Shown: in pieces, positions 19,745 through 64,000 of the stretch
Numbering within the stretch: the stretch's first letter is position 1
Layout: every line of letters starts with the position of its first letter
Source of the DNA: Squalus acanthias
Lineage: Eukaryota
DNA length: 64,000 bases
Direction of reading: 5' to 3'
Assembly: GCA_030390025.1 (NCBI GenBank)
Contig: JASTWF010000033.1
Span: forward strand, 1,800,001 to 1,864,000
Position numbers and translations under genes: made by a program
The notes under the pieces: generated by a model
What the model saw: the letters and a program-made list of their open reading frames with translations, nothing else
Told to the model about the DNA's origin: nothing
The model's database searches: none

Positions 19745-21045
19745 AAATAAAAACTGGAAATGCTGGAAATACCCAGCAGGTCAGGCAGCATCGATAGAGA
19801 GAGAAACAGAGTTAATGTTTCAGGTCGAGGACCCTTGGTCAGAACTGGAAAAAGTTACAGATGTAACAGATTATTCAGCAAGTGTCGGGGCCGGGAAAGG
19901 TGGGGGGAGCGGAGGAAAGAACAAAAGGGAAGGTCTGTGATAGGGTGGAAGACAGGAGAGGTTAAAAGACAAAAGGGATGATGGTGCAGCAAAAGGAGAT
20001 GGTAATGGGACAAGTTAAAAATCAAAAGATGAATCTAGATGAGGTGTGAATGGCAATGGCAGAATCATCAACAGCTGTCATGCGAGAGAGAAAAAGGGAA
20101 AAGGAAAAACAATGAAAAAAATAAAATAGCGGCCGAGTTTATAGTCTGAAATTGTTGAAGTCGATGTTGAGTCCAGAAGTCTGTAAAGTGCCTAATTGAA
20201 AGATGAGGTCTGTTCCTCGATCTTATGTTGTACTTTGTTGGAAGAGTGTAAGAGGCCGAGAATGGAGAGGTCAGAGTGGGAGTGGAGCGGAGAATTAAAG
20301 CGATAGGCGACCAGAAGCTCGGGGTCACACTTATGGACTGAGCGGAGGTGTTCCGCAAAGCGGCCACCCAATCTGCGTTTGGTCTCCCCAATGTAGAGGA
20401 GACCGCATCGTGAGCAGCGAATACAGTATACTAAATTGCAAGAAGTACAAGTAAATCGCTGTTTTACCTGGAAGGAGTGTGTGGGGCGACAGTGGGAAGG
20501 GAAGAGGTAAAAGGGCAGGTGTTGCATCTCCTGTGCTTGCATGGGAAGGTGCAGTGGGAAGGAGAAGGGGAAGGGTGTTGGGGGTGATTGAGGAGTGGAC
20601 CAGGGTGTCGCGGAGGGAACGATCCCTTCATGGTGCTGAAAGGGGAGGTGAGGAGAAGATGTGTTTGGTGGTGGCATCACGCTGGAGGTGGCGGAAATGG
20701 CGGAGGATGATCCGTTGAATGTGAAGGCTGGTGGGGTGAAAGGTGAGGACAAGGGGAACCCTATCGTGGTTCCGGGTGGAAGGGGAAGGGATGAGGGCAG
20801 AAGTGCGGGAAATAGAACAAACACGGTCAAGAGCCGTGTCAACCATGGTAGCGGGGAATCCTCGGTTGAGGAACAAGGAAGACATGTCGGAAGCACGAGT
20901 ATGGAACGTGGCATCGTCAGAGCAGATGCGGCAGTGACGGAGAAACTGGGAGATTGGACCAGCGTCCTTACACGAAGCGAGGTGGGAGGAAGTGCATTCA
21001 AGGTAGCTGTGGGAGTCAGAGGGCTTATAGTGAATGTTTGTCAAT
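19745..21045 (-). mobile_element. 5'-truncated, degenerate Penelope-like retroelement (Neptune-like): RT C-terminus, Cys-rich linker, GIY-YIG endonuclease and 3' terminal repeat
   Basis: Frameshifted peptides IHYKPSDSHSYL..SQFLRHCRICSDD..RVPLVLTFHP and FTCTSCNLVYCIRCSRCGLLYIGETKRRLGGRFAEH (VY-YIG motif with the Arg-containing motif). Typical terminal tract at 19745-19850. Confidence 0.92.
19810..19846 (-). ncRNA. Decayed minimal type I hammerhead ribozyme in the Penelope terminal repeat
   Basis: Minus strand reads AGTT-CTGACCA-AGGGTCCTCGACCT-GAAACATT-AACT. Stem I is AGTT/AACT and stem II is GGGTC/GACCT. The core has CUGANGA changed to CUGACCA and the palindromic ACGU changed to ACAU. Confidence 0.7.
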
Positions 21046-39406: not shown

Positions 39407-39606
39407 NNNNNNNNNNNNNNNNNNNNNNNNNNNNNNNNNNNNNNNNNNNNNNNNNNNNNNNNNNNNNNNNNNNNNNNNNNNNNNNNNNNNNNNNNNNNNN
39501 NNNNNNNNNNNNNNNNNNNNNNNNNNNNNNNNNNNNNNNNNNNNNNNNNNNNNNNNNNNNNNNNNNNNNNNNNNNNNNNNNNNNNNNNNNNNNNNNNNNN
39601 NNNNNN
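39407..39606. other. Assembly gap (200 N)
   Basis: Fixed-length N run between two different satellites; true distance and adjacency are unknown. Confidence 0.99.
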
Positions 39607-42600
39607 CCCTCAAACTAATACAGCCCCTCAAACTAATACAGCCCCTCAAACTAATACAGACCCTCAAACTAATACAGCCCCTCAAACTAATACAGCTCCT
39701 CAAACTAATAGAGACCCACAAACTAATACAGCTCCTCAAACTAATACAGACCCTCAAACTAATACAGACCCTCAAACTGATACAGACCCTCAAACTAATA
39801 CAGTACCTCAAACTAATACAGCCCCTCAAACTAATACAGACCCTCAAACTAATACAGTACCTCAAACTAATACAGACCCTCAAACTAATACAGATCCTCA
39901 AACTAATACAGCACCTGAAACTAATACAGCCCCTCAAGCTAATACAGCTCCTCAAACTAATACAGACCCTCAAACTAATACAGCCCCTCAAACTAATACA
40001 GAAGCTCAAACTAATACAGCCAATCAAACTAATACAGTACATCAAACTACTACAGCCCCTCAAACTAATACAGACCGACAAACTAATAGAAAACCTCATA
40101 CTAATACAGCCCCTCAAACTAATACAGACCCTCAAACTAACACAGCCCCTCAAACTAAAACAGTACCTCAAACTAATACAGCCCCTCAAACTAATACAGA
40201 CCCTCAAACTAATGCAGTACCTCAAACTCATACAGCTCCTCAAACTAATACAGCCCCTCAAACTAATACAGCCCCTCAAACTAATACAGCCCCTCAAACT
40301 AATACAGACCCTCAAACTAATACAGACCCTCAAACTAATACAGCCCCTCAAAATAATACAGACCCTCAAACTAATACAGATCCTCAAACTAATACAGTAC
40401 CTCAAACTAATACAGCACCTCAAACTAATACAGACCCTCAAACTAATACAGTACCTCAAACTAATACAGACCCTCAAACTAATACAGACCCTCAAACTAA
40501 TACAGCATCTCAAACTAATACAGTCCCTCAAACTAATACAGCTCCTCAAACTAATACAGACCCTCAAACTAAAACCGTACCTCAAACTAATACAGCCCCT
40601 CAAACTAATACAGCTCCTCCAACATATACAGTACATCAAACTAATACAGCTCCTCAAACTAATACAGCCCCTCAAACTAATACTGACCCACAAACTAATA
40701 CAGCCCCACAAACTAATACAGCCCCTCAAACTAATAGAGACCCTCAAACTAATACAGGCCCTCAAACTAATACAGCACCTCAAACTCATACAGCCCCTCA
40801 AACTAATACAGACGTTCAAACTAATTCAGCCCCTCAAACTAATACAGTACATCAAACTACTGCAGCCCCTCAAACTAATACAGACCGACAAACTAATAGA
40901 AAACCTCATACTAATACAGCTGCTCAAACTAATACAGACCCTCAAACTAATACAGTAGCTCAAACTAATACCCCCCTCAAACTAATACAGCTCCTCAAAC
41001 TAATACAGACCCTCAAACAAATACAGCACCTAAAACTAAGACAGGCCCTCAAACTAATACAGCTCCTCAAACTAATGCAGACCCTCAAAATAATACAGTA
41101 CCTCAAACTAATATAGCCCCTCAAACTAATACAGACCCTCAAACTAATACAGCTCCTCAAACTAATACAGCACCTCAAACTAATACAGCCCCTCAAACTA
41201 ATACAGCCCCTCAAACTATTACAGCCCCTCAAACTAATACAGCCCCTCAAACTAATACAGACTCTCAAACTAATACAGACCCTCAAACTATTACAGCCCC
41301 TCAAACTAATACAGCCCCTCAAACTAATACAGACTCTCAAAATAATACAGCCCCTCAAACTATTACAGATCGTCAAAATAATAAAAAACCTCAAACAAAT
41401 ACAGCTCCTCAAACTAATACAGATCCTCAAACTAATACAACTCCTCAAACTAATACAGCAGCTCAAACTAATACAACTCCTCAAACTAATACAGCCCCTC
41501 AAACTAAAACAGACCCTCAAACTAATACTGCCCCTCAAACTAATACAGCCCCTCAAACTAATACAGACCCCAAAACTAATACAGCCCCTCAAACTAATAC
41601 AGCCACTCAAACTAATTCAGCCCCTCAAACTAATACAGCCCCTCAAACAATTACAGCTCTTCAAACTAATAGAGACCCACAAACTAATACAGCTCCTCAA
41701 ACTAATACAGACCCTCAAACTAATACAGACCCTCAAAATAATAGAGCACCTCTAAGTAATACATCCTCTCAAATTAATACAGTACCTCAAACTAATACAG
41801 CTCCTCAAACTAATACAGACCCTCAAACTAATAAAGCCCCTCAAACTAATACAGACCCTCAAAATAATACAGCCCCTCAAACTAATACAGATCGTCAAAC
41901 TAATAGAAAACCACAAACTAAAACAGCTGCTCAAACTAATACAGTCCCTCAAACTAATACAGCCCCTCAAACTAATACATATCCTCAAACTAATACAACT
42001 CCTCAAACTAATAGAGCACCTCAAACTAATACATATCCTCAAACTAATACAACTCCTCAAACTAATACAGCCCCTCAAACTAATACAAATCCTCAAACTA
42101 ATACAGCCCCTCAAACTAATACAGACCGTCAAACAATTACAGCTCCTCAAACTAATACAGACCATCAAACTAATACAGCCCCTCAAACTAATACAGCCCC
42201 TCAAACTAATACAGTACCTCAAACTAATACAGACCCTCAGACTAATTCAGCACTTCAATCTAATACAGACCCTCAAACTAATACAGCCCCTCAAACTAAT
42301 ACAGTACCTCAAACTAATACAGAACTTCAAACTAATACAGCCCCTCAAACTAATACAGACCCTCAAACTAATTCAGCACCTCAATCTAATACAACACCTC
42401 AAAACTAATACAGCCCCTCAAACTAATACAGACCCTCAAACTAATAGAGCTCCTAAAACTAATACAGCACCTCAAACTAATACAGTACCTCAAACTAATA
42501 CAGACCGTCAAACGAATACAGACCCTCAAACTAAAACAGTACCTCAAACTAAAACAGCCCCTCAAACTAATACAGACCCTCAAACTAATACAGCCCCTCA

Positions 42601-45580
42601 AACTAATACAGACCCTCAAACTAATACAGACCCTCAAACTAATACAGTACCTCAAACTAATACAGCCCCTCAAACTAATACAGACCCTCAAACTAATGCA
42701 GTATCTCAAACTAATACAGCTCCTCAAACTAATACAGCCCCTCAAACTAATACAGCCCCTCAAACTAATACAGCCGCTCAAACTAATACAGACCCTCAAA
42801 GTAATAGAGCTCCTCAAACTAATACAGACACTCAAACTAAAACAGTACCTCAAACTAATACAGCCCCTCAAACTAATACAGACCCTCAAACTAATACAGC
42901 CTCTCAAACTAATACAGAACCTCAAACTAATACAGCCGCTCAAACTAATACAGTACCTCAAACTAATACAGCCCCTCAAACTAATACAGACCCTCAAACT
43001 AATACAGTACCTCAAACTAATACAGACCCTCAAACTAATACAGACCCTCAAACTAATACAGCACCTCAAACTAATACAGCCCCTCAAACTAATACAGACA
43101 CTCAAACTAATACAGACCCACAAACTAATACAGCCCCTCAAACTAATACAGACCCTCAAACTAATACAGACCCTCAAACTAATACAGACCCACAAACTAA
43201 TACGGCACCTCAAACTCATACAGCCCCTCAAACTAATACAGCCACTCAAACTAATACAGTACATCAAACTACTACAGCCCCTCAAACTAATACAGACCGA
43301 CAAACTAATAGAAAACCTCATACTAATACAGCCCCTCAAACTAATACAGACCCTCAAACTAATAGAGCTCCTCAAACTAATACAGACCCGCAAACTAATA
43401 CAGTACCTCAAAATAATACAGACCCTCAAACTAATACAGACCCTCAAACTAAAACAGTACCTCAAACTAATACAGCCCCTCAAACTAATACAGACCCTCA
43501 AACTAATACAGCCCCTCAAACTAATACAGATCCTCAAACTAATACAGACCCTCAAACTAATGCAGTACCTCAAACTAATACAGCCCCTCAAACTAATACA
43601 GACACTTAAACTAATGCAGTACCTCAAACTAATACAGCTCCTCAAACTGATACAGCCCCTCAAACTAATACAGCCCATCAAACTAATAAAGCCGCTCAAA
43701 CTAATACAGACCCTCAAAGTAATAGAGCTCCTCAAACTAATACAGCACCTCAAACTAATACAGACCATCAAACGAATACAGACCCTCAAACTAAAACAGT
43801 ACCTCAAACTAATACAGCCCCTCAAACTAATACAGACCCTCAAACTAATACAGCCCCTCAAACTAATACAGACCCTCAAACTAATACAGACCCTCAAACT
43901 AATACAGTACCTCAAACTAATACAGCCCCTCAAACTAATACAGACCCTCAAACTAATACAGTACCTCAAACTAATACAGACCCTCAAACTAATACAGACC
44001 CTCAAACTAATACAGCACCTGAAACTAATACAGCCCCTCAAGCTAATACAGCTCCTCAAACTAATACAGACCCTCAAACTAAAACAGTACCTCAAACTAA
44101 CACAGCCCCTCAAACTAATACAGACCCTCAAACTAATACAGCCCCTCAAACTAATAAAGAAGCTCAAACTAATACAGCCACTCAAACTAATACAGTACAT
44201 CAAACTACTGCAGCCCCTCATCTAATACAGACCCTCAAACTAACACAGCCCCTCAAACTAAAACAGTACCTCAAACTAATACAGCCCCTCAAACTAATAC
44301 AGACCCTCAAACTAATGCAGTACCTCAAACTCATACAGCTCCTCAAACTAATCCAGCCCCTCAAACTAATACAGCCCCTCAAACTAATACAGCCCCTCAA
44401 ACTAATACAGACCCTCAAACTAATACAAACCCTCAAACTAATACAGCCCCTCAAAATAATACAGACCCTCAAACTAATACAGATCCTCAAACTAATACAG
44501 TACCTCAAACTAATACAGCACCTCAAATTAATACAGACCCTCAAACTAATACAGTACCTCAAACTAATACAGACCCTCAAACTAATACAGACCCTCAAAC
44601 TAATACAGCACCTCAAACTAATACAGTCCCTCAAACTAATACAGCTCCTCAAACTAATACAGACCCTCAAACTAAAACCGTACCTCAAACTAATACAGCC
44701 CCTCAAACTAATACAGCTCCTCCAACTAATACAGTACATCAAACTAATACAGCTCCTCAAACTAATACAGCCCCTCAAACTAATACTGACCCACAAACTA
44801 ATACAGCCCCACAAACTAATACAGCCCCTCAAACTAATAAAGACCCTCAAACTAATACAGGCCCTCAAACTAATACAGCACCTCAAACTCATACAGCCCC
44901 TCAAACTAATACAGACGTTCAAACTAATTCAGCCCCTCAAACTAATACAGTACATCAAACTACTTCAGCCCCTCAAACTAATACAGACCGACAAACGAAT
45001 AGAAAACCTCATACTAATACAGCTGCTCAAACTAATACAGCCCCTCAAACTAATATAGCTCCTCAAACTAATGCAGCCCCTCAAACCAATACAGCCCCTC
45101 AAACTAATATAGCTCCTCAAACTAATACAGACCCTCAAACTAATACAGTAGCTCAAACTAATACCCCCCTCAAACTAATACAGCTCCTCAAACTAATACA
45201 GACCCTCAAACTAATACAGCACCTAAAACTAAGACAGGCCCTCAAACTAATACAGCTCCTCAAACTAATACAGACCCTCAAAATAATACAGTACCTCAAA
45301 CTAATACAGCCCCTCAAACTAATACAGCCCCTCAAACTAATACAGCTCCTCAACCTAATATAGTACATCAAACTAATACAGCCCCTCAAACTAATACAGA
45401 CCCTCAAACTAATACAGCCTCTCAAACTAATACAGACCGTAAAACTAATGCAGACCCTCAAACTAATACAGCCCCTCAAACTAATACAGCCCCTCAAACT
45501 ACTGCAGCCCCTCAAACTAATACAGTCCCTCAAACTAATACAGACCCTCAAACTAATACAGCCCCTCAAACTAATGCAGT
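39607..45580. repeat. 18-bp satellite CCTCAAACTAATACAG(CC/AC/TA/CT), left block
   Basis: 6-codon periodicity (PQTNTA / LKLIQP) with scattered 1-bp indels. Confidence 0.97.
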
Positions 45581-46485
45581 AAAAAGGGTTGTAGTCAGAA
45601 GTCTGGAAATTATAGACCTGTCAGCCTAACATCTGTGATGGGAAAAATTTTGTAGTCTATTATTAAGGTGACAATAACGGATAATTTAGAAAAGTTAGTA
45701 TGCAGGTGCAGCAGGTGATCAAGAAAGCCAATGGAATGTTGGCTTTTATTGCTAGGGGGATAGAATATAAAAATAGGTAGGTATTGCTGCAGTTGTGTTG
45801 GGTATTGTTGAGACCGCCCCTGGAGTACTGCATACTGTTTTGGTGTCCACACTTAAGAAAAGACACACTTGCTCTCGAGGCAGTACAAAGAAGGTTCACT
45901 CGGTTAATTCCGGGGATGAGGGGGTGGACATACGAGAAGATGCTGAGTAGATTGGGACTCTACTCATTGGAGTTCAGAAGAATGAGAGGCGATCTTATTG
46001 AAACATATAAGATTGTGAAGGGGCTTGATCGGGTGGACGCGGTGAGGATGTTCCCAATGATGGGTGAAACTACAACTGGGGGACATAATCTTAGAATAAG
46101 GGGCTCCTCTTTCAAAACTGAGATGAGGAGAAACTTTTTCACTCAGAGGGTAGTGGGTCTGTGGAATTTGCTACCCCAGGAAGCTGTGGAAGCTACTTCA
46201 TTAAATAAATTTAAAACAGAAATAGACCGTTTCCGAGAAGTAAAGGAAATCAGGGGTTACGGGGAGCGGGCTGGAAATTGGACATGAGTTTGTGTTCGGA
46301 TCAGTTAAGGCCCTGTGGGTGGCGGAGCTGGCCCAGGGGCCGAGTGGCCTGGTCCTGCTCCTGCTTCTTGTGTTCTTTAGAGTTGAGGTTGGATCAGATC
46401 AGCCATGATCTCATTGAATGGCGGAGCAGGTCGAGGGGCCGATTGGTCTACTCCTGCACCTATTTCTTATGTTCTTATGTTCTTA
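45581..46485 (+). mobile_element. CR1-clade LINE 3' fragment with internal deletion of the RT core, inserted in the 18-bp satellite
   Basis: KKG..GNYRPVSLTSVMGKIL*SII joined near 45692 to KVSMQVQQVIKKANGMLAFI..RPPLEYC..LEAVQRRFTRLIPG..RRMRGDLIETYKI..FFTQRVVGLWNLLP. 3' UTR ends in TTCTTATG repeats. Confidence 0.93.
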
Positions 46486-46487
46486 TT

Positions 46488-47195
46488 TACCTCAAACTAA
46501 TACAGTACCTCAAACTAATATGGTACCTCAAACTAATACAGCCCCTCAAACTAATACAGCCCCTCAAACTAATACAGCCCCTCAAACTAATACAGCCCCC
46601 CAAACTAATACAGACACTCAAACTAATACAGCTCCTCAAACTAATACAGACCCTCAAACTAATACAGCTGCTCAAACTAATACAGACACTCAAACTAATA
46701 GAGAACTTCAAACTAATACAGACGCTCAAACTAATAGAGAACCTGAAACTAATACAGCCCTTCAAACTAATACAGACCCTCAAACTAATACAGCCCCTCA
46801 AATTAATACAGCTCCTCAAACTAATACAGTACCTCAATCTAATACAGCCCCTCAAACTAATACAGCCCCTCAAACTAATACAGCCCCTCAAACGAATACA
46901 GTACCTCAAACTAATACAGCCCCTCAAACTAATACAGCCCCTCAAACTAATGCAGACCCTCAAACTAATACAGCCCCTCAAACTAATACAGTACCTCAAA
47001 CTAATACAGCCCCTCAAACAAATACAGCCCCTCAAACTAATACAGCCCCTCAAACTAATACAGCCCCTCAAACTAATACAGCTCCTCAAACTAATACAGC
47101 CCCTCAAACTAAGACAGCCCCTCAAACTAATACAGCCCCTCAAACTAATACAGCCCCTCAAACTAATACAGCTCCTCAAACTAATACAGTTCCTC
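46488..47195. repeat. 18-bp satellite, right block
   Basis: The same monomer resumes in register after the CR1 tail. Confidence 0.96.
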
Positions 47196-47428
47196 TAACT
47201 AGTAGACAGACCCACCCACCACCTTTCTGGTCCAAAGTCCTGTAATCTCCTGTTCCCACAAAGTCACAGTGCATGGGATATCCATTGCCAGACACCATGA
47301 GGTCGTTACCAGGCTAACAACTCATTGTACAGATTATTTGAACAGTTTAACAATGCGAATTCTAAATATAAATTTAAAAGTCTTGTGTTTATTTCTGTTA
47401 AGTTAGTAATGGTCTATTAAATAAAGGC

Positions 47429-48675
47429 ATGGCAGGGCACCTCATCCCCGTGGAATGCACATCTTGTGCCATGTGGGAACTCCAGTACACTTCCCGTGTC
47501 CTGGACAATCACATGTGCAGGAAGTGTCGTCAGCTGGAGGAGCTCTAACTCCGGGTTTAGGAGCTTGAACATCAACTGGCGTCACTGCGGTGCATCCGTG
47601 ATGCTGAGAGCTACGTGGATAGCACGTTTCAGGAGATGGTCACCCCGCAACCTAAGAGTGCGCAGGCAGAGAGGGAATGGGTGATCGCCAGACAGACAAG
47701 GTGGACCAGGCAGTTAGTGCAGGAGTCTCCTGGGTGCATCTCACTCTCTAACCGATATTCAGTGGTACATACTGGAGAGGGAGTTGGTTCCTCTGGCGAG
47801 TATTTCCAGAGCCAAGTCCAGAGCACCACGGGTGGATCAGCTCTACAGAGGGGGTTGGGGGGTGGGGGGGGGGCGGAGGAGAAAGATCAGGAAAGCAATA
47901 GTGATCGGGGATTCAATAGTTAGGGGAACAGACAATCGTTTCTGCGGCCGCAAACGTGGCTCCAGGATGGTATGTTTCCTCCCTGGTGCCAGGGTCAAGG
48001 ACTGAAGAACATTCTGAGGAGGGTAGTTGAACAGCCAGGGGTCGTGGTCCATATCGGTACCAATGACATTTGTAGAAAGAGGGATGACGACCTACAGGCA
48101 GATTTTAGGGAGCTAGGAAAGAGATTAAAATCAGGACCTCAAAGGTAGTAATCTCCGGATTACTCCCGGTGCCTGTGCTGTGATTATTGAAATAGGAGGA
48201 TAGAGCAGATGAATGAGTGGCTGGAGAGATGGTGCATTAGGGAGTGCTTTAGATTCCTGGGACATTGGGACCGGTTCTCGGGGAGGTGGGGCCTGTACAG
48301 GCCGGGAAAGTTTGCACCTCAACAGGGCCGAAACCAATGGCCTCGACGGGGAGGGGGGTGGGTTGCACGGAGTGTTGGGGAGGATTTAAACTAATTTGGC
48401 AGTGGGTGGGCACCAGGCTGTAGCATTAGAAAGGAGAATCAAGGTGCACAAAGGATTGGGAGAGACGGATAGCACAAGAGTAATAAATAATAAGGTCCTA
48501 TGTGGGGTCAGACTAAGAGAATACAAGACAGGTTTACAGTGCATGTGGGTAAATGCATGAATTGTGGTTAATAAGGTTGTTGAGCTGCAGGCCACATGGC
48601 AATATGTTGTCGTGATGATAATGGAGACATGCTCAAAAAAGGGTAGGATTGGGTACCAAATATTCCTGGGGAGAA
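47429..48675 (+). mobile_element. Degenerate CR1 LINE 5' part: ORF1 (Cys zinc finger, coiled coil, SGNH/GDSL esterase) and the start of the ORF2 AP-endonuclease
   Basis: ATG 47429 MAGHLIPVECTSCAMWE..CRKC, then AIVIGDSIVRG..CFLPGARVKD, VVVHIGTND and NEWLERWC..FRFLGHWD, stop at 48394. Followed by LQCMWVNA..NKVVEL. Multiple stops and frameshifts. Confidence 0.88.
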
Positions 48676-48677
48676 GG

Positions 48678-49474
48678 TCATAGTCTTAGTCACAGAGTCA
48701 TAGATTTATACAGCACAGAAAGAGGCCCTTTGGCCCATCGTGTCCGCGCTGGCCATGAAGCCCCATCTATTCTAATCCCATTTTCCAGCACTTGGTCCGT
48801 AGCCTTGTGTGCTATGGCATTTCAAGTGCTCATCTAAATGCTTCTTGAATGTTGTGAGGTTCCTGCCTCTACCACCCTTTCAGGCAGTGAGTTCCAGATT
48901 CCAACCACCCTCTTGGTGAAAACGTTTTTCCTCAAATCCCCTCTAAACCTTCTGCCCCTTACATTGAAACTATGCCCCCTGGTTATTGACCCCTCTGCTA
49001 AGGGGAAGAGTTCTTTTCTATCTACCGTATCAATGTCCCTCATAATTTTGTACACCTCAATCAGGCTCCCCCCTCAGCCTTCTCTGCTCTAAGGAAAACA
49101 ACCCCAGCCTGTTCAGTTTCTCTTCATAGCTGAAGCGCTCCAGCCCAGGTAACAATCCTGGTGAATCTCCTCTGCACCCTGTCAAATGCAATCACATCCT
49201 TCCTATAGTGTGGCGACCAGAACTGCTCACAGTATTCCAGCTGTGGCCTAACTAGCGTTTTGGACAGCTCCGTCGTAACCTCCCTGCGCTTATATTCTAT
49301 GCCTCGGCGAATGAAGGCAAGTAACCCATTTGCCTTTTTAACCACCTTATCTACCTCTCCTGCTGCCTTCAGGGATCTATGTACATGCACACCAAGGTCC
49401 CTCTGAACCTCCCTCCTTCCTACGGTCCTACCATTCATGGTGTATTCCCTTGCCTTGTTAATCTTCCCAAAATG
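48678..49474 (-). mobile_element. Second CR1 LINE 3' fragment (different subfamily, opposite orientation)
   Basis: QRDLGVHVHRSLK..VVKKANGLLAFI..LVRPQLEYCEQFWSPHYRKD and YKIMRDIDTVD..FTKRVVGIWNSLPERVVEAG, with a degenerate short-repeat tail at 48678-48705. Confidence 0.92.
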
Positions 49475-52400
49475 CTCATTTCAAAAACACAGACAACTCA
49501 TTTCACAAACTCAGGAAGTTCATTTCAGAGACCCAGACAGCTCCATTCACAGATTAGGACAGATCCATTCACAGACTCAGACAGCTCCAATCACAGAAAC
49601 AGACAGCAACATTCACAGACATGGAAAGCTGATTTCAAAAACCCAGACAGCTCATTTCAAAAACAGAGAAAGTTCATTTCACAGATCTAGACGTCTCCAT
49701 TCACATACACGGACAACTCATTTCGGAGATTAAGTCAGCTAAATACACAGACCCAGATAGCTCCATTCACAGACCCAGACATCTCCAATCACAGATCCAG
49801 ACAGCTGCATTCACAGACCCAGACAGCTCCATTCACAGACTCAGACAGCTCCATTCACAGACCCAAACATCTCCATTCACAGACACAGACAGCTCCATTC
49901 ACAGATCCAGACAACTCCATTTAGAAACTCAGACAGCTCCATTCACAGACTCAGACAGCTCCATTTAGAGACTCAGACAGCTCCATTCACAGACTCAGAC
50001 AGCTCCATTTAGAGACTCAGACAGCTCCATTCACAAACTCAGACAGCTCCATTTAGAGACTCAGACAGCTCCATTCACAGACCCAGACAGCTCCATTTAC
50101 AGACCCAGACAGCTCCTTTCACAGACCCAGACAGCTCCATTCACAGACTCAGTTAGCTTCATTCACGGACCCAGGCAGCTGATTTCACAGACCAAGACAG
50201 CACATTTCACAGATCCAGACAGCTCTATTCAAAGACACAGATAGCTCATATCATCGACCAAGACAGCTCCATTTACAGACCCAGACAGCTCCATTTACAG
50301 ATCCAGACAGCTCCATTGACGATAGGTCTTCGACCTGAGACGTTAACTCTGTTTCTCTCTCCACGATTTGTGCCTGGCCTGCAGAGTTTTCCAGCGTTTT
50401 CTGTTGTTAGATTCATTCACAGATTCAGCCAGCTCCATTCACAGACTCAGAAAGTTCATTTCAGAGACCTAGATAGCACCATTCACAGACCCATACAGCT
50501 CCATTCACAGACTCCGAAAGTTCATTTCACAGACCCAGACAGCTCCATTTACAGACTCTGACAGCTCCATTAACAGACCCAAACAGCTCATTTCACAGAC
50601 CCAGACAGCTCCATTTACAGACCCAGACAGCTCCATTGACGATAGGTCTTCGACCTGAAACGTTAACTCTGTTTCTCTCTCCACGGATTGTGCCTGGCCT
50701 GCAGAGTTCTCCAGCGTTTTCTGTTGTTAGATTCATTCACAGATTCAGACAGCTCCATTCACAGACTCAGAAAGTTCATTTCAGAGACCTCGATAAAACC
50801 ATTCACAGACACAGACAGTTCCATTCAGAGACCCAGACAGCTCCATTCACAGACTCCGAAAGTTCATTTTACAGATCCAGACAGTTCCATTCACAGACCC
50901 AGACAGATCCATTCAGAGACTCAGACAGCTCCATTCACAGACCCAGACAACTCCATTCACAAACCCAGACAGCTCCATTTACAGACATGGAAAGCTGATT
51001 TGAACAAAAAACAGACAGCTCATTTCACGAACAGATTCAGACAATTCATTTGACAGACCCAGACATCTGCATTCAGAGACTCAGAAAGCTCATTTCAGAC
51101 ACTCAGACAGCTCCATTCAAAGATCCAGATGGCTGACTTCAAAGATTGTGAAAGCTCAGGTCACAGACGCAGACAGCTCCATTAACCACGTCAGACAGCT
51201 CTATTCACAGACCCAGACAACTCAATTTTCAGACCCAGACAGCTCCATTCACAGACCCAGACAGCTCCATTTAGAGACTCAGACAGCTCCATTCACAGAC
51301 TCAGACAGCTCCATTTAGAGACTCAGACAGCTCCATTCACAGACCCAGACAGCTCCATTTACAGACCCAGACAGCTCCTTTCACAGACCCAGACAGCTCC
51401 ATTCACAGACTCAGTCAGCTTCATTCACGGACCCAGGCTGCTGATTTCACAGACCCAGACAGCACATTTCACAGATCCAGACAGCTCCATTCAAAGACAC
51501 AGACAGCTCATATCATCGACCAAGACAGCTCCATTCACAGATTCAGACAGCTCCATTCACAGACTCCGAAAGTTCATTTCACAGACCCAGACAGCTCCAT
51601 TTACAGACTCCGACAGGTCCATTCACAGACCCAAACAGCTCATTTCACAGACCCAGACAGCTCCATTTACAGACCCAGACAGCTCCATTGACGATAGTTC
51701 TTCGACCTGAAACGTTAACTCTGTTTCTCTCTCCACGGATTGTGCCTGGCCTGCAGAGTTCTCCAGCGTTTTCTGTTGTTAGATTCATTCACAGATTCAG
51801 ACAGCTCCATTCACAGACTCAGAAAGTTCATTTCAGAGACCTCGATAGAACCATTCACAGACACAGACAGTTCCATTCAGAGACCCAGACAGCTCCATTC
51901 ACAGACTCCGAAAGTTCATTTTACAGATCCAGACAGTTCCATTCACAGACCCAGACAGATCCATTCAGAGACTCAGACAGCTCCATTCACAGACCCAGAC
52001 AACTCCATTCACAAACCAAGACAGCTCCATTTACAGACATGGAAAGCTGATTTGAAAAAAACAGACAGCTCATTTCACGAACAGATTCAGACAATTCATT
52101 TGACAGACCCAGACATCTCCATTCAGAAACTCAGAAAGCTCATTTCAGACACTCAGACAGCTCCATTCAAAGATCCAGATGGCTGACTTCAAAGATTGTG
52201 AAAGCTCAGGTCACAGACGAAGACAGCTCCATTAACCACGTCAGACAGCTCTATTCACAGACCCATACAACTCAATTTTCAGACCCAGACAGCACATTTC
52301 ACAGACCCAGACAGCTCATTCACAGACACAGACAGTTCCATTCACAGATCCAGACAGCTCCATTTACAGACTCAGACAGCTCCATTCACAGACCCACACA

Positions 52401-55400
52401 GCTCCATTCACAGACCCAGACAGCTCATTCACAGACACAGATAGCTCCATTCACAGACCCAAACTGCACCATTCTCAGACTCAGACAGCTCCATTCACAG
52501 ATCCAGACAGCTCATTCACAGACACAGATAGCTCAATTCACGGACCAAACAGCACCATTCACATACTCAGACAGATCCATTCACAGACTCAGACATCTCC
52601 ATTCACAGACCCAGAGAGCTCCATTCACAGACCCAGGCAGCACCTTTCACAGACCCAGGCAGCTCCATTCACAGACTCAGACAACTCCATTCACAGACCC
52701 AAACATCTCCATTCACAGACACAGACAGCTCCATTCACAGACCCAGACAACTCCATTTAGAGACTCAGACAGCTCCATTCACAGACTCAGACAGCTCCAT
52801 TTAGAGACTCAGACAGCTCCATTCACAGACTCAGACAGCTCCATTTAGAGACTCAGACAGCTCCATTCACAAACTCAGACAACTCCATTTAGAGACTCAG
52901 ACAGCTCCATTCACAGACCCAGACAGCTCCATTTACAGACCCAGACAGCTCCTTTCACAGACCCAGACAGCTCCATTCACAGACTCAGTCAGCTTCATTC
53001 ACGGACCCAGGCAGCTGATTTCACAGACCCAGACAGCACATTTCACAGATCCAGACAGCTCTATTCAAAGACACAGACAGCTCATATCATCGACCAAGAC
53101 AGCTCCATTTACAGACCCAGACAGCTCCATTTACAGCTCCAGACAGCTCCATTGACGATAGGTCTTCGACCTGAAACGTTAACTCTGTTTCTCTCTCCAC
53201 GATTTGTGCCTGGCCTGCAGAGTTTTCCAGCGTTTTCTGTTGTTAGATTCATTCACAGATTCAGCCAGCTCCATTCACAGACTCAGAAAGTTCATTTCAG
53301 AGACCTAGATAGCACCATTCACAGACCCATACAGCTCCATTCACAGACTCCGAAAGTTCATTTCACAGACCCAGACAGCTCCATTTACAGACTCTGACAG
53401 CTCCATTCACAGACCCAAACAGCTCATTTCACAGACCCAGACAGCTCCATTTACAGACCCAGACAGCTCCATTGACGATAGGTCTTCGACCTGAAACGTT
53501 AACTCTGTTTCTCTCTCCACGGATTGTGCCTGGCCTGCAGAGTTCTCCAGCGTTTTCTGTTGTTAGATTCATTCACAGATTCAGACAGCTCCATTCACAG
53601 ACTCAGAAAGTTCATTTCAGAGACCTCGATAAAACCATTCACAGACACAGACAGTTCCATTCAGAGACCCAGACAGCTCCATTCACAGACTCCGAAAGTT
53701 CATTTTACAGATCCAGACAGTTCCATTCACAGACCCAGACAGATCCATTCAGAGACTCAGACAGCTCCATTCACAGACCCAGACAACTCCATTCACAAAC
53801 CAAGACAGCTCCATTTACAGACATGGAAAGCTGATTTGAAAAAAAACAGACAGCTCATTTCACGAACAGATTCAGACAATTCATTTGACAGACCCAGACA
53901 TCTGCATTCAGAGACTCAGAAAGCTCATTTCAGACACTCAGACAGCTCCATTCAAAGATCCAGATGGCTGACTTCAAAGATTGTGAAAGCTCAGGTCACA
54001 GACGCAGACAGCTCCATTAACCACGTCAGACAGCTCTATTCACAGACCTAGACAACTCAATTTTCAGACCCAGACAGCTCCATTCACAGACCCAGACAGC
54101 TCCATTTAGAGACTCAGACAGCTCCATTCACAGATTCAGACAGCTCCATTTAGAGACTCAGACAGCTCCATTCACAGACCCACACAGCTCCATTCACAGA
54201 CCCAGACAGCTCATTCACAGACACAGATAGCTCCATTCACAGACCCAAACTGCACCATTCTCAGACTCAGACAGCTCCATTCACAGATCCAGACAGCTCA
54301 TTCACAGACACAGATAGCTCAATTCACGGACCAAACAGCACCATTCACATACTCAGACAGATCCATTCACAGACTCAGACATCTCCATTCACAGACCCAG
54401 AGAGCTCCATTCACAGACCCAGGCAGCACCTTTCACAGACCCAGGCAGCTCCATTCACAGACTCAGACAACTCCATTCACAGACCCAAACATCTCCATTC
54501 ACAGACACAGACAGCTCCATTCACAGACCCAGACAACTCCATTTAGAGACTCAGACAGCTCCATTCACAGACTCAGACAGCTCCATTTAGAGACTCAGAC
54601 AGCTCCATTCACAGACTCAGACAGCTCCATTTAGAGACTCAGACAGCTCCATTCACAAACTCAGACAACTCCATTTAGAGACTCAGACAGCTCCATTCAC
54701 AGACCCAGACAGCTCCATTTACAGACCCAGACAGCTCCTTTCACAGACCCAGACAGCTCCATTCACAGACTCAGTCAGCTTCATTCACGGACCCAGGCAG
54801 CTGATTTCACAGACCCAGACAGCACATTTCACAGATCCAGACAGCTCTATTCAAAGACACAGACAGCTCATATCATCGACCAAGACAGCTCCATTTACAG
54901 ACCCAGACAGCTCCATTTACAGCTCCAGACAGCTCCATTGACGATAGGTCTTCGACCTGAAACGTTAACTCTGTTTCTCTCTCCACGATTTGTGCCTGGC
55001 CTGCAGAGTTTTCCAGCGTTTTCTGTTGTTAGATTCATTCACAGATTCAGCCAGCTCCATTCACAGACTCAGAAAGTTCATTTCAGAGACCTAGATAGCA
55101 CCATTCACAGACCCATACAGCTCCATTCACAGACTCCGAAAGTTCATTTCACAGACCCAGACAGCTCCATTTACAGACTCTGACAGCTCCATTCACAGAC
55201 CCAAACAGCTCATTTCACAGACCCAGACAGCTCCATTTACAGACCCAGACAGCTCCATTGACGATAGGTCTTCGACCTGAAACGTTAACTCTGTTTCTCT
55301 CTCCACGGATTGTGCCTGGCCTGCAGAGTTCTCCAGCGTTTTCTGTTGTTAGATTCATTCACAGATTCAGACAGCTCCATTCACAGACTCAGAAAGTTCA

Positions 55401-58400
55401 TTTCAGAGACCTCGATAAAACCATTCACAGACACAGACAGTTCCATTCAGAGACCCAGACAGCTCCATTCACAGACTCCGAAAGTTCATTTTACAGATCC
55501 AGACAGTTCCATTCACAGACCCAGACAGATCCATTCAGAGACTCAGACAGCTCCATTCACAGACCCAGACAACTCCATTCACAAACCAAGACAGCTCCAT
55601 TTACAGACATGGAAAGCTGATTTGAAAAAAAACAGACAGCTCATTTCACGAACAGATTCAGACAATTCATTTGACAGACCCAGACATCTGCATTCAGAGA
55701 CTCAGAAAGCTCATTTCAGACACTCAGACAGCTCCATTCAAAGATCCAGATGGCTGACTTCAAAGATTGTGAAAGCTCAGGTCACAGACGCAGACAGCTC
55801 CATTAACCACGTCAGACAGCTCTATTCACAGACCTAGACAACTCAATTTTCAGACCCAGACAGCTCCATTCACAGACCCAGACAGCTCCATTTAGAGACT
55901 CAGACAGCTCCATTCACAGATTCAGACAGCTCCATTTAGAGACTCAGACAGCTCCATTCACAGACCCAGACAGCTCCATTTACAGACCCAGACAGCTCCT
56001 TTCACAGATCCAGACAGCTCCATTCACAGACTCAGTCAGCTTCATTCACGGACCCAGGCAGCTGATTTCACAGATCCAGATAGCACATTTCACAGATCCA
56101 GACAGCTCCATTCAAAGACACAGACAGCTCATATCATCGACCAAGACAGCTCCATTCACAGATTCAGACAGCTCCATTCACAGACCCAGACAGCTCCATT
56201 CACAGACTCCGAAAGTTCATTTCACAGACCCAGACAGCTCCATTACAGACTCCGACAGCTCCATTCACAGACCCAAACAGCTCATTTCACAGACCCAGAC
56301 AGCTCCATTTACAGACCCAGACAGCTCCATTGACGATAGGTCTTCGACCTGAAACGTTAACTCTGTTTCTCTCTCCACGGATTGTGCCTGGCCTGCAGAG
56401 TTCTCCAGCGTTTTCTGTTGTTAGATTCATTCACAGATTCAGACAGCTCCATTCACGGACTCAGAAAGTTCATTTCAGAGACCTCGATAAAACCATTCAC
56501 AGACACAGACAGTTCCATTCAGAGACCCAGACAGCTCCATTCACAGACTCCGAAAGTTCATTTTACAGATCCAGACAGTTCCATTCACAGACCCAGACAG
56601 ATCCATTCAGAGACTCAGACAGCTCCATTCACAGACCCAGACAACTCCATTCACAAACCAAGACAGCTCCATTTACAGACATGGAAAGCTGATTTGAAAA
56701 AAACAGACAGCTCATTTCACGAACAGATTCAGACAATTCATTTGACAGACCCAGACATCTCCATTCAGAGACTCAGAAAGCTCATTTCAGACACTCAGAC
56801 AGCTCCATTCAAGGATCCAGATGGCTGACTTCAAAGATTGTGAAAGCTCAGATCACAGACGCAGACAGCTCCATTAACCACGTCAGACAGCTCTATTCAC
56901 AGACCCAGACAACTCAATTTTCAGACCCAGACAGCACATTTCACAGTCCCAGACAGCTCATTCACAGACACAGACAGTTCCATTCACAGATCCAGACAGC
57001 TCCATTTACAGACTCAGACAGCTCCATTCACAGACCCAGACAGCTCCATTCACAGACCCTGACAGCTCCATTCACAGACCCAGACAGCTCATTCACAGAC
57101 ACAGATAGCTCCATTCACAGACCCAAACTGCACCATTCTCAGACTCAGACAGCTCCATTCACAGATCCAGACAGCTCATTCACAGACACAGATAGCTCAA
57201 TTCACGGACCCAAACAGCACCATTCACATACTCAGACAGATCCATTCACAGACCCAGACAGCTCCATTCACAGACCAAGACAGCTCCATTCACAGACCCA
57301 GACAGCTCCATTCACAGACCCAGACAGCTCCATTCACAGACTCAGACAGCTCCATTCACAAACCCAGACAGCTCGATTCACCGACCCAGTCAACTCCATT
57401 CACAGACTCAGACAGCTCCATTCACAGACCCAGATAGCTCCATTCACAGACCCAGACAACTCCATTCACAAACCCAGACAGCTCATTCACCGACACAGAT
57501 AGCTCCATTCACAGACCCAAACAGCACCATTCACAGACACAGACAGCTCCATTCACAGATCCAGACAGCTCCATTTAGAGACTCAGACAGCTCCATTCAC
57601 AGACTTAGACAGCTCCATTTAGAGACTCAGTCAGCTTCATTCACAGACCCAGACAGCTCCATTTACAGACCCAGACAGCTCCTTTCACAGACACATACAG
57701 CTCCATTCACAGACTCAGTCAGCTTCATTCACGGACCCAGGCAGCTGATTTCACAGACCCAGACAGCACATTTCACAGATCCAGACAGCTCCATTCAAAG
57801 ACACAGACAACTCATTTCATCGACCAAGACAGCTCAATTTACAGACCCAGACAGCTCAATTTACAGACCCAGACAGCTCCATTGACGATAGGTCTTCGAC
57901 CTGAAACGTTAACTCTGTTTCTCTCTCCACGATTTGTGCCTGGCCTGCAGAGCTTTCCAGCGTTTTATGTTGTTAAATTCATTCACAGATTCAGACAGCT
58001 CCATTCACAGACTCAGAAAGATCATTTCAGAGACCTTGATAGCACCATTCACAGACACAGACAGTTCCATTCACAGACCCATACAGCTCCATTCGCAGAC
58101 TCCGAAAGTTCATTTCACAGATCCAGACAGCTCCATTCACAGACCCAGACAACTCCATATACAAACCCAGACAGCTGCATTGCAGACCCAGACAGCTGCA
58201 TTTACAGACTCAGGCAGCTCAATTCACAGACCCAGACAGCTCCATTCACAGACACAGACAGCTCCATTTACAGACTCTCGCAGCTCCATTCACAGACATA
58301 GACAGCTCCATTCACAGACCCAGAGAGCTCCATTCACAGACACAGACAGCTCCATTCACAAATCCAGACAGCTCAATTCACAGCCCAAGAAAGCTTCTTT

Positions 58401-61400
58401 CACAGACCCAGACAGCTAGATTTACATACCCAGACAGCTCCATTCACAGACCCAGACAGCTCCATTTACAGACTCTGGCAGCTCCATTCACAGACACAGA
58501 CACAGACAGCTCCATTCACAGACCCAAAAAGCTAGATTTACAGACCCAGACAGCTCCATTTAGAGACCCAGACAGCTCCATTTACAGATTCTCGCAGCTC
58601 CATTCACAGACCCAGACAGCTTTTTCACAGACCCAGACAGCTCCATTCACTGACCGAGTCAGCTCCATTCACAGACTCTGGCAGCTCCATTCACAGACAC
58701 AGACAGCTCCATTTACAGAGCCAGACAGCTCCATTCACAAACTCAGACAGCTCCATTCACAGACCTAGACAGCTCATTCACAGACACAGATAGCTCCATT
58801 CACAGACTCAGACATGTCCATTCACAGATCCAGACATCACCATTCACAGACCAGAAAACACATTTCACAGACCCAGACAGCTACATTCACATACTCGGTA
58901 ACCTCATTTCACAGACACAGACAGCTCCATTCACAGACTCAGACAGCTCCATTCACAGACTCAGACAGCACCATTCACAGACTCAGACAGCCGCATTCAC
59001 AGACTCAGACAGCTCCATTCACAGACTCAGACAGCACAATTCACAGACTCAGACAGATCCATTCACAGACTCAGACAGCACCATTCACAGACCCAGGCAG
59101 CTACATTCACAGACCCAGACAGCTCCAGTCACAGACCCAGACAGCTCCACTCACAGACCGAGACATCTCCATTCACAGATCCAGACATCACCATTCACAG
59201 ACCAGACAACTCATTTCACAGACTCAGACGTCTTCAATCACAGACCGAGACAACTCCATTCACAGACTCAGGCAGCTCCATTCACAGACCCAGACAGCAC
59301 ATTTCACAGATCCAGACAGCTCCATTCACAGATTCAGACAGCTCATTTCACAGATTCAGACAGCTCATTTCACAGACGCAGACAGCTCCATTCACAGACC
59401 CAGACAGCTCATTTCACAGATTCAGACAGCTCATTTCACACACACAGACAGCTCCATTCACAGACACAGGCAGTTCCATTCACAGGCCCAGACAGCACCA
59501 TTCACAGACCCAGACAGCTCCATTCACAGACCCAGACAGCTCCATTCACAGACACAGACAGCTCATTTCACAGATTCAGACAGCTCATTTCACAGACGCA
59601 GACAGCTCCATTCACAGACACAGGCAGTTCCATTCACAGGCCCAGACAGCTCCATTCACAGACACAGACAGCTCCATTCACAGATGCAGACATCTCTATT
59701 CACAGACTCAGACAGCACAATTCACAGACCCAGACAGCACCATTCACAGACCCAGACAGCTCCATTCAGAGACCCAGACAGCTCAATTCACAGATCCAGA
59801 CATCACCATTCACAGACCAGACAACTCATTTCACAGACTCAGACAGCACCATTCACAGACCCAGACAGCTCCATTCACAGACCCAGACAGCTCCATTTAA
59901 AGACTCAGACAGCTCCATTCACAGACCCAGACAGCTCAATTCACAGACCCAGACAGATACATTCACAGACCGAGACAGCTCCATTTGCAGACTCAGACAT
60001 CTCCATTCACAGACTCAGACAGCTCCATTCACAGACGCAGACAGCTCCATTCACAGTCTCAGAAAGCTAATTTCACAGACCCAGACAGCTGCATTCACAG
60101 ACTCAGACAGCTCCATTCACAGTATCCGAAACATAATTTCACAGATCCACACAGCTCCATTCACAGATCCAGACAGATCCATTCACAGACCCAGACTGCT
60201 AAATTCAGAGAAACAGACAGCAACATTCACAGACATGGAAAGCTGATTTCAAAAACACAGACAGCTCATTTCACAAATCTCAGAAAGTTCATTTAACAGA
60301 CCCAGACAGCTCCATTCATGACACAGACAATTCATTTCATGACCTGTACAGCTCCAATCGCAGACTCAGTCATCTAAATTCACAGACCCAGGCTTCTCCA
60401 ATCACAGACCCAGACAGCTCCATTCACAGACCCAGACAGTTCCATTCACAGACTGAGAATGTTCATTTCACAGAACCAGACAGCTCCATTCACAGACCCA
60501 GACAGCTCATTTCACAGACCCAGACAGCTCCATTCACAGACTCTGACAGCTCCATTCACAGACCAAGACAGCTCATTTCACAGACACAGACAGCTCATTT
60601 CACAGACCCAGACAGCTTCAATCACAGACCGAGACAACTCCATTCACAGACTCAGACAGCTCCATTCAGAGACCCAGACATCACATTTCACAGACTCAGA
60701 CAGCTCCATTCACAGATTCAGACAGCTCATTTCACAGACCCAGACAGCTCCATTCACATACTCTGACAGCTCCATTCACAGACCCGGACAGCTCATTTCA
60801 CAGACCGAGACAGCTCATTTCACAGACCCAGACAGCTCCATTCACAGACTCAGACAGCTCCATTCACAGACCCAGACAGCTCCAATCACAGACCCAGACA
60901 GCTCCATTCACAGACCCAGACAGCTCCATTCACAGATTCAGACTGCTCCATTCACAGACGCAGACAGCTCTATTCACAGACTCAGACAGCTCAATTCACA
61001 GACCCAGACAGCACCATTCACAGACCCAGACAGCTCCATTCAGAGACCCAGACAGCTCAATTCACAGACCCAGACAGCACCATTCACAGAACCAGACAGC
61101 TCCATTCACAGACACAGACAGCTCCAATTAAAGACTCAGACAGCTCCATTCACAGACCCAGACAGCTCAATTCACAGACCCAGACAGATACATTCACAGA
61201 CCGAGACAGCTCCATTTGCAGACTCAGACATCTCCCTTCACAGACTCAGACAGCTCCATTCACAGACGCAGACAGCTCCATTCACAGTCTCAGAAAGCTA
61301 ATTTCACAGACAAAACAGCTGCATTCACAGACTCAGACAGCTCCATTCACAGTATCCAAAACATAATTTCACAGATGCACACAGCTCCATTCACAGATCC

Positions 61401-64000
61401 AGACAGATCCATTCACAGACCCAGACTGCTACATTCAGAGAAACAGACAGCAACATTCACAGACATGGAAAGCTGATTTCAAAAACACAGACGGCTCATT
61501 TCACAAATCTCAGAAAGTTCATTTAACAGACCCAGACAGCTCCATTCATGACACAGACAATTCATTTCATGACCTGTACAGCTCCAATCGCAGACTCAGT
61601 CATCTAAATTCACAGACCCAGGCTTCTCCAATCACAGACCCAGACAGCTCCATTCACAGACCCAGACAGTTCCATTCACAGACTCAGAATGTTCCTTTCA
61701 CAGAACCAGACAGATCATTTCACAGACCCAGACAGCTCATTTCACAGACCCAGACAGCTCCATTCACAGACTCTGACAGCTCCATTCACAGACCCAGACA
61801 GCTCATTTCACAGACACAGACAGCTAATTTCACAGACCCAGACAGCACAATTCAAAGACCCAGACAGCTCCATTCACAGACTCAGACAGCTCAATTCACA
61901 GACCCAGACAGCTCCATTCACAGACCCAGACAGCTCCATTCACAGACCCAGATAGCTCCATTCACAGACCCAGACAGCTCCATTCACAGACTCAGACAGC
62001 TCAATTCACAGACCCAGACAGCTCCATTCACAGACCCAGACAGCTCCATTCACAGACCCAGATAGCTCCATTCACAGACCCAGACAGATCCATTCACAGA
62101 CTCAGACATCAACATTCACCGACATGGAAAGCTGATTACAAAAACACAGACAGCTCATTTCCCAAATTCATTAAGTTCATTTAACTGATCCAGACATTTC
62201 CATTCACAGAAAAGATAACTCATTTCACAGACTCAACAGCTCCATTCACAGATTCAGACAGCACCATTCACAGACTCAGACAGCTCCATTCACAGACTCA
62301 GCCAGCTCCATTCACAGACTCAGACAGCACCATTCATAGACTCAGACAGCTCTATTCACAGTCACAGAAAACTCCATTCTCAGACCCAAACAGCTCATTT
62401 CACAGACAGAGACAGCTCCATTCACAGACCCAGACAGCTCCAATCACAGACCGAGACATCTCCATTCACAGATCCAGACATCACCATGCACAGACCCAGA
62501 CAGCACATTTCACAGATCCAGACAGCTCCATTCACAGAATCAGACAGCTCAATTCACAGATTCAGACAGCTCATTTCACACACCCAGACAGCTCCATTCA
62601 CAGACACAGGCAGTTCCATTCAAAGGCACAGACAGCTCCATTCACAGAACCAGACAGCTCCATTCACAGACCCAGGCAGCTCCATTCACAGACCCAGACA
62701 GCTCCATTCACAGACTCTGACAGCTCCATTCACAGACCCAGACAGCTCATTTCCCAGACCCAGACAGCTCATTCCACAGACCCAGACAGCTCCATTCACA
62801 GACTCAGACAGCTCCATTCACAGACCCAGACAGCTCCATTCACAGACCCAGACAGCTCCATTCACAGACCCAGACAGCTCCATTCACAGACTGTGACAGC
62901 TCCATTCACAGACCCAGACAGGTCATTTCACACACCCAGACAGCTCATTTCACACACCCAGACAGCTCATTTCACAGACTCAGACAGCTCCATTCACAGA
63001 CCCAGACAGCTACAGTCACAGACCCAGATAGCTCCATTCACAGACCCAGACAGCTCCATTCACAGACCCAGACAGATCCATTGAAAGACTGTGACAGCTC
63101 CATTCACAGACCCAGACAGGTCATTTCACACACCCAGACAGCTCATTTCACACACCCAGACAGCTCATTTCACAGACTCAGACAGCTCCATTCACAGACC
63201 CAGACAGCTACAGTCACAGACCCAGATAGCTCCATTCACAGACCCAGACAGCTCCATTCACAGACCCAGACAGATCCATTGAAAGACTCAGACAGCAACA
63301 TTCACCGACATGGAAAGCTGATTACAAAAACACAGACAGCTCATTTCAAAAATTCATTCAGTTCATTTCACTGACACAGACATTTCCATTCACAGACCCA
63401 GAAAGCTCATTTCACCGAACCAGACAGCTCCATTCACAGACCCAGACAGCTCCATTCACAGACCCAATCACTGACCAAGACAGCTCCTTCCACAGACACA
63501 GACAGTTCCATTCACAGACCCAGGCAGCTCCATTCACAGATGCCGAAAGATCATTTCACAGATACAGACAGCTCCATTCACAGACCCAGACAGATCCATT
63601 CACAGACTCAGACAGATCCATTCACAGACTCAGATAGGTCCATTGACAGACCAGACAGCTCCATTCACTGACCCAGGCAGCTCCATTCACAGACCCAGAC
63701 AGCTCCAGTCACAGACCCAGACAGCTCCAGCCAACACCCAGACAGCTCCAATCACAGACCAAGACATCTCCATTCACAGATCCAGACATCACCATTCACA
63801 GACCAGACAACTCATTTCACAGACTCAGACAGCTCATTTCACAGACCCAGACAGCTGATTTCACAGACCCAGATAGCTACATTCACATACTCGGTAATCT
63901 CATTTCACAGACACAGACAGCTCCATTCACAGACTCAGACAGCACCATTCACAGACTCAGACAGCCGCATTCACAGACTCAGACAGCTCCATTCACAGAC
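49475..64000. repeat. 22-bp satellite CAGACAGCTCCATTCACAGAC(C/T) with many variants and kb-scale block duplications; runs off the right edge
   Basis: 22-bp period giving a 22-aa cycle (QTQTAPFTDPDSSIHRPRQLHS). Block offsets of 1786, ~1230 and 198 bp are visible from recurring ORF starts. Confidence 0.97.
50316..57979 (+). mobile_element. Nine ~97-bp Penelope terminal-repeat / hammerhead fragments embedded in the 22-bp satellite (starts 50316, 50636, 51688, 53152, 53472, 54938, 55258, 56330, 57882)
   Basis: TTGACGATAGGTCTTCGACCTGAAACGTTAACTCTGTTTCTCTCTCCAC...CCAGCGTTTTCTGTT aligns by eye to the reverse complement of 19750-19842. Confidence 0.85.

Follow-up and report, generated by a model that had tools for sequence, protein, structure and literature searches.

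The window described here is a 64,000-nt stretch of the Squalus acanthias genome (contig JASTWF010000033.1, positions 1,800,001-1,864,000), and all coordinates below refer to it. Most of it is tandem DNA, in arrays with units of 27, 39, 18 and 22 bp, and the 22-bp satellite array is interrupted nine times by a foreign 96-bp module that carries part of a hammerhead ribozyme. Judged by its sequence, the module comes from the 3′ end of a Penelope-like element and is a fragment of its pseudo-long terminal repeat (pLTR). Our best reading, to which we give a probability of about 85%, is that one truncated Penelope insertion, catalytically dead, was amplified passively together with the satellite. 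The array and its modules are the following:

49474..64000, + strand, 22-bp satellite array (21-bp variants too), ~620 units, reaching the window end
50318..50413, + strand, module copy 1, type A, A14 changed to G
50638..50733, + strand, module copy 2 (the reference), type B
51690..51785, + strand, module copy 3, type B, with a stem II mismatch
53154..53249, + strand, module copy 4, type A
53474..53569, + strand, module copy 5, type B
54940..55035, + strand, module copy 6, type A, exactly equal to copy 4
55260..55355, + strand, module copy 7, type B, same sequence as copies 2, 5 and 8
56332..56427, + strand, module copy 8, type B
57884..57979, + strand, module copy 9, type A, with three tail changes private to it
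50638..50668, + strand, hammerhead remnant of copy 2: G5-A9, an unpaired base, a 5-bp stem II, GAAA and the palindromic ACGT (anatomy after PMC4209133)

The modules are confined to 50318-57979, leaving the final 6 kb of the array module-free. An unbiased scan for stretches without the array's frequent 9-mers delimited the foreign sequence as 96 bp in each of the nine copies, and returned one further stretch, of 50 bp, that is not a module (56812-56861). A 29-nt core pattern matched nine times with at most one mismatch, seven times exactly, and never in 100 shuffles. A sequence-only reading of this DNA had described nine copies; all nine were confirmed, with starts, counted from the module limit used there, at 50316, 50636, 51688, 53152, 53472, 54938, 55258, 56330 and 57882, as were its two variant copies (50316 and 51688) and its seven exact ones. 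The ~97-bp module of that reading does recur, but its limits shift: the two leading T's are satellite unit sequence, and the module proper begins two bases later (e.g. 50638-50733).

In copy 2, H17 is the U at 50664, followed by an orphan 3′ strand of stem I (50665-50668). Stem II, G12-A13-A14, A15.1/U16.1, the palindromic 15.2-16.2 positions and H17 are all complete in seven of the nine copies, and the substrate half, from A15.1 through the stem I 3′ strand, is invariant in all nine. A covariance-type hammerhead search, suggested earlier as a check, gave no hammerhead match to any copy: Rfam returned no match at gathering score over the whole window, and four weak unrelated matches in 50000-52000. 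This negative says little, the dispersed hammerhead at 19748 in the same window having been missed too. Pattern scans for relatives found no loci in two passes over metagenome contigs and none in viral contigs.

That dispersed hammerhead belongs to the sole other homolog of the module in the window (19748-19841, − strand, 79.8% over 94 bp, E 3e-18; the remaining 11 non-array matches have E of at least 0.055), which is one end of a larger element:

19748..21040, − strand, decayed, 5′-truncated Penelope-like element outside the 22-bp array, with its pLTR end at 19748-19846

Its hammerhead keeps C3 and a 4-bp stem I, but is altered at G8 and G16.2. Upstream of the pLTR end lies a GIY-YIG remnant with a broken frame and an internal CxxC (20195-20485; PF01541, 23.8 bits against a cut-off of 22.6), preceded by a C-X4-C-X2-C linker motif (20515-20541). 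The element is truncated and frameshifted, reverse transcriptase is absent in usable form, and its upstream 137-aa frame has no Pfam match. The end of the module and that of this relative coincide to within a few bases. It is because the homolog adjoins a GIY-YIG remnant and linker motif that we assign the module to a Penelope-like 3′ end; the earlier claim of descent from a Penelope-type minimal type I hammerhead is borne out by this homolog and by a dispersed family found in sequencing runs.

Copy 2 was compared with four of 24 listed sequencing runs (organisms coded A, A, C and D), as assembled contigs at 80% likeness; such contigs cannot show RNA ends, strand or level. All four runs contain a high-copy dispersed family that shares the hammerhead and extends 5′ of the module start. 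Its contigs (369, 66, 49 and 94 in the four runs) join at 50637; their loose consensus 5′ of that point ends CCAGTTC and carries C3 and a stem I 5′ strand complementary to the four bases that follow the cleavage site. Satellite contigs depart at 50637 into plain satellite (listed for two of the four runs, X1 and X9) and resume at 50734 (listed for one, X1). Since family contigs with C3 and satellite contigs part at 50637, the apparent ‘U3’ of the modules is, on this comparison, satellite DNA, and C3 and the stem I 5′ strand were removed by 5′ truncation. The sequence-only reading had C3 replaced by U and the core-proximal stem I lost; the loss of both stands, but there was no substitution, C3 having been cut off at the junction. 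A mutation of C3 to U was rejected because the position is the junction itself. Both edges of the insert carry a short repeat:

50634..50637, + strand, CATT direct repeat on the left of copy 2; satellite, with the two T's that look like ‘U3’ and U4, of which the last T matches the element too
50734..50737, + strand, CATT direct repeat on the right of copy 2; looks like a target-site duplication, but its first bases may match the element end too

CATT flanks both sides of all nine copies, and the junctions are identical. Deleting the insert and one CATT restores a normal satellite unit; the array has 266 such sites, nine of them followed by a module. The CATT pair looks like a 4-bp target-site duplication. 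Independent insertions were rejected because the junctions are the same in every copy: the earlier observation that the module always starts at the core holds as to the common start, which represents one junction copied nine times and not nine events.

Penelope insertions are described as frequently 5′-truncated (PMC8557442), and in an anole Penelope element the cut is reported to fall at ATT, reverse transcription to begin at fixed internal sites and uncleaved RNA to be used (PMC11167929). The anole scheme would fit a 96-bp cDNA whose synthesis continued beyond the cleavage site and ended within the core, by inference from a different clade. Insertion by an endonuclease cut and reverse transcription is the probable route, in preference to capture by microhomology-guided DNA repair. 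At 50626-50637, the six satellite bases immediately before the junction are one base off the family's own pre-core sequence, a microhomology that may have fixed the truncation point. The proposed event is that a 5′-truncated Penelope-like cDNA, 96 bp from hammerhead G5 to the usual 3′ end, inserted at CATT in one 22-bp unit; as the truncation would have taken C3 and the stem I 5′ strand, the ribozyme would have been disabled on arrival.

How nine copies could arise from one insertion is suggested by the array itself, in which the modules sit inside higher-order duplications of 0.3-2.8 kb, with blocks 94-98.5% identical carrying module and flanks together. Two cases are:

51468..56031, + strand, higher-order tandem duplication (51468-54244 versus 53252-56031), offset 1784, 98.5%
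49761..51564, + strand, higher-order block, recurring at 54383-56185 (98.5%) and partly at 52597-54244 (98.2%)

Older duplicated blocks have 94-97% identity, and a tree of the nine shared blocks has two sub-lineages, A and B. The module-free part of the array contains a higher-order duplication as well (59501-61846, offset 1230, 94.9%); block duplication proceeds without the module too. Unequal exchange or slippage would have duplicated insert-bearing blocks of 0.3-2.8 kb, producing the two sub-lineages and the nine copies, with the modules themselves doing nothing.

Part of the copy number would be inflated if the youngest duplication (offset ~1785) were one block assembled twice, and copies 4/6 and 5/7 do lie in blocks with 5 mismatches over ~1880 bp, in a window that has an assembly gap elsewhere (39407-39606). 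We regard this as quite unlikely: the blocks are not identical, and other blocks differ by 1.5-6%. In a DNA run of organism A, moreover, 16% and 54% of the summed contig depth at 50689 and 50703 comes from letters specific to the module, while the other three runs give 0.3-4.7%; this fits real amplification and hints at more than nine module copies, although depth is not copy number and the run may be the source of the window. The verdict on function is unaffected either way.

Sequence variation among the copies bears on that verdict. In the block common to all nine, the hammerhead part has 2 variable sites in 31, the tail 6 in 65 and the flanks 12 in 137 (Fisher p = 1.0), and both hammerhead-part changes strike functional positions, damaging the motif. 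Block-wise mismatch rates (core 0-3.2%, satellite 1.5-5.8%) add no independent evidence, since they count those two core changes again. The sequence-only reading had itself cautioned that the modules might be passive relics, naming equal divergence of core and flanks as one of the signs of a dead insertion; that is how the comparison came out, at low power.

On catalysis we give most weight to the missing bases. Pairs of stem I adjoining the core number four of four in the dispersed copy in the window and none of four in each of the nine satellite copies, and a core pattern with C3 has no match in the window. Hammerhead position 3 must pair with position 8, the natural covariation being C-G to U-A (PMC4209133, PMC3088659), and in the anole element cleavage was abolished when the 3-8 pair was broken (PMC11167929); here U3 faces G8 in all nine copies, with no Watson-Crick pair. 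In predicted folds the first six core bases form a helix with the cleavage-site strand (G8-C15.2 probability 0.57-0.98). The nine hammerhead-like motifs are most likely catalytically dead, as far as sequence and folding models can tell.

The sequence-only reading had gone further, seeing a retrozyme-like layout whose transcript could be processed into unit RNAs. In its strongest form this would be a working retrozyme-like satellite, in which the palindrome lets neighbouring modules (such as the A-B pairs with 320-bp spacing) form dimers that cut the transcript by means of a slipped satellite stem I. Seven of the nine copies do keep G5-A9, stem II, GAAA and the palindrome, and three pairs are exactly 320 bp apart, within the retrozyme monomer size range given in PMC7229834. 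Skipping three bases upstream of U3 gives the best slipped register, with three of four stem I pairs, and hammerheads with a 2-nt insertion at that place, although strongly impaired, are reported to show low activity at very high Mg2+ (PMC3088659). The scheme would nevertheless have to work with three inserted nucleotides, a mismatch in stem I, a wobble between U3 and G8 and an A-U pair at the foot of stem II simultaneously. The predicted probability of an inter-copy stem III is ~1e-8, and forcing the dimer would cost ~17 kcal/mol in all three natural A-B pairs. Copy spacings are irregular (320, 1052, 1464, 320, 1466, 320, 1072 and 1552 bp), five of the eight exceeding 1 kb. The would-be 320-nt unit RNA folds worse than 95 of 100 shuffles (z +1.52), and circular units are predicted to be 38-49% paired. 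Intact minimal Penelope hammerheads already cut poorly according to PMC4209133, and eight of nine predicted frog retrozymes gave no cleavage in a preprint (bioRxiv 10.64898/2026.07.22.740005). We consider a working retrozyme highly improbable. The retrozyme-like layout falls with the absence of a complete motif, the irregular spacing and the 22-bp repeat unit; processing into unit RNAs is likewise not predicted, the core-proximal stem I being impossible in any copy. The distal helix between satellite and module that the earlier reading had left in place is predicted, but at chance level: 2264 of 5800 module-free satellite windows (39%) give at least 6 bp with the same 14 downstream bases, and as so many do as well, the helix was rejected as a selected feature.

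A second functional possibility starts from the substrate half that the module keeps (palindrome, cleavage triplet and stem I 3′ strand): RNA of intact dispersed Penelope elements would cut satellite transcripts as a heterodimer. Nothing in this half differs among the nine copies; all four runs (two of them guessed to be RNA) are very rich in family sequence that carries C3 and stem I; and minimal hammerheads are thought to act as dimers (PMC4209133, PMC6765202). Such a complex would be held by only ~8 intermolecular base pairs, though, and the half is buried in a self-hairpin with pair probabilities of 0.85-0.98 in short predicted folds of copies 1 and 2, while twelve unchanged bases are expected at this divergence. 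Cleavage in trans strikes us as extremely doubtful.

Beyond the window, words of 50250-51700 occur in runs under 11 coded organism labels (A-K), with shares of 0.11-0.55, which points to a satellite or element common to related species. One contig of organism C (107 nt, 16 differences, no gaps) spans the 3′ junction, covering over 31 bases to either side of it. Another, of organism D (95 nt, 1 difference, depth 93), passes that junction by ~22 bases and is not counted as bridging. The insertion may predate the lineages of organisms A, C and D, to judge by these contigs. In run X14, guessed to be RNA, none of the eight listed pieces, among 32 of more than 27,000, bridges a junction, which says nothing on expression.

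Several points weigh against a single dead insertion carried along passively. The 3′ junction seems to be present in another organism, and the module has persisted for some time; persistence in a self-homogenising array is, however, no evidence of function. Reading CATT as a target-site duplication is ambiguous, since both ends share bases with the element. The variation test is weak, with 2.7 variable hammerhead-part sites expected against 2 seen, and even zero would have had a probability of 0.058. The hammerhead part is nearer to the dispersed family (~1 difference in 31) than is the tail (7-9 in 65; p 0.16-0.43, manual count), a pattern for which selection is no better an explanation than chance or subfamily differences in the tail. 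We found no measured cleavage rate in the literature for U3 with G8 (C3U), and PMC7151607 lists a natural core that combines U3 and G8 with a 2-nt insertion. Finally, the folds have no good positive control, the decayed dispersed copy forming stem I at a probability of only 0.001, and for this reason we weight fold energies below the missing bases.

If the passive reading is correct it matters little in itself, as a tidy example of a Penelope terminal fragment that entered tandem DNA and was multiplied without a working ribozyme. It does carry a caution for retrozyme surveys, that hammerhead-like motifs in tandem need not be retrozymes, and the insert could serve as a marker to date satellite duplications within and between species. 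More would follow from the boldest alternative, a split ribozyme: the satellite would have captured the Penelope substrate half and kept it across related species, its transcripts being cut in trans by intact-element RNA or weakly in cis through the slipped stem I. This is very unlikely, but if true it would link a retroelement to satellite RNA processing; trans or residual cleavage would make the locus a natural split hammerhead on satellite RNA, possibly an early step from satellite to retrozyme.

The rest of the window contains four other arrays, unrelated to the 22-bp satellite and with strong strand skews: 1-19241, 24116-24555, 25556-39406 and 39607-47201, with units of 27, 86, 39 and 18 bp. 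A gap of 200 N (39407-39606) joins the 39-bp and 18-bp arrays. Foreign inserts are present in three of the four large arrays, so that insertion into satellite appears to be an ordinary event in this window. The 39-bp array has a single 439-bp insert (26271-26709) with a short 8-bp tandem repeat at its start, presumably the tail of a long interspersed element (LINE) joined to a short interspersed element (SINE); ARAGORN found no tRNA in it. A single 912-bp insert in the 18-bp array (45576-46487, + strand) has a 168-codon frame and a short tandem tail; we take it to be the 3′ end of a CR1/L2-type LINE, and it has no Pfam match. Between the 18-bp and 22-bp arrays, 47350-49473 holds LINE-like fragments on both strands, which we assume to be a CR1-type 5′ part on the + strand and a 3′ part on the − strand; the sole Pfam signal there is a weak OSK/SGNH-like one below the cut-off. 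A 569-codon open stretch (21915-23621, − strand) with NACHT, NOD2 winged-helix and NLRC4 HD2 domains, flanked by satellite arrays, is the large exon of an NLR immune gene.

Among known systems, the element from which the module came can be placed through its relative in the window. A C-X4-C-X2-C linker marks Neptune/Nematis-type Penelope-like elements in the description of PMC8557442, and its presence suggests that type for the relative. With the endonuclease-bearing (EN+) elements of this type the relative shares a C-terminal GIY-YIG with CxxC and the upstream linker, in contrast to Penelope/Poseidon elements, which the same source describes as lacking that linker. The relative differs from Neptune/Nematis elements in having no usable reverse transcriptase, and the likeness is one of motifs.

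The modules most resemble the minimal type I hammerheads (min-HHR) of metazoan Penelope pLTRs, as characterized in PMC4209133. Shared features are the 4-bp stem I (in the intact family), the unpaired base between A9 and stem II, the palindromic 15.2-16.2 for stem III, the position at the element end after GIY-YIG and the many solo truncated copies. The satellite copies differ in having neither C3 nor the stem I 5′ strand, in the A-U rather than G-C base of stem II, and in owing their number to satellite duplication and not to transposition.

Non-LTR (non-long terminal repeat) retrozymes are described as tandem arrays whose units, a few hundred bases long, all contain a complete type I hammerhead and yield circular RNA with a high degree of self-pairing (PMC7229834; bioRxiv 10.64898/2026.07.22.740005; PMC6155905; PMC6765202). 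The preprint derives them from Penelope pLTRs, reports them in its one cartilaginous fish and defines them by two or more successive units in tandem, every one of which has a complete type I hammerhead; monomers are ~150-450 bp, or up to 972 in that preprint. We found no publication on this satellite or junction, and the preprint's supplementary families from the cartilaginous fish could bear on the point. With retrozymes and the hammerhead satellites of newt, axolotl, coral and frog (PMC7229834; bioRxiv 10.64898/2026.07.22.740005), the locus shares a hammerhead-derived motif in tandem DNA, a Penelope pLTR origin and some ~300-bp spacings. In those systems the repeat unit itself holds a complete hammerhead and the circular RNA is self-paired, whereas here the unit is a 22-bp satellite, interrupted in nine of ~620 cases, with no complete motif, no regular monomer and a would-be unit RNA that is, by prediction, not highly self-paired.

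The locus lies outside the retrozyme family and most likely does not work like one. Retroelement fragments are known as passengers in higher-order duplications of satellite arrays, and it is with these that the locus agrees, as a single insertion whose junctions stay the same while blocks of increasing size copy it along with its flanks; it differs from them in that the passenger is the remnant of a ribozyme.

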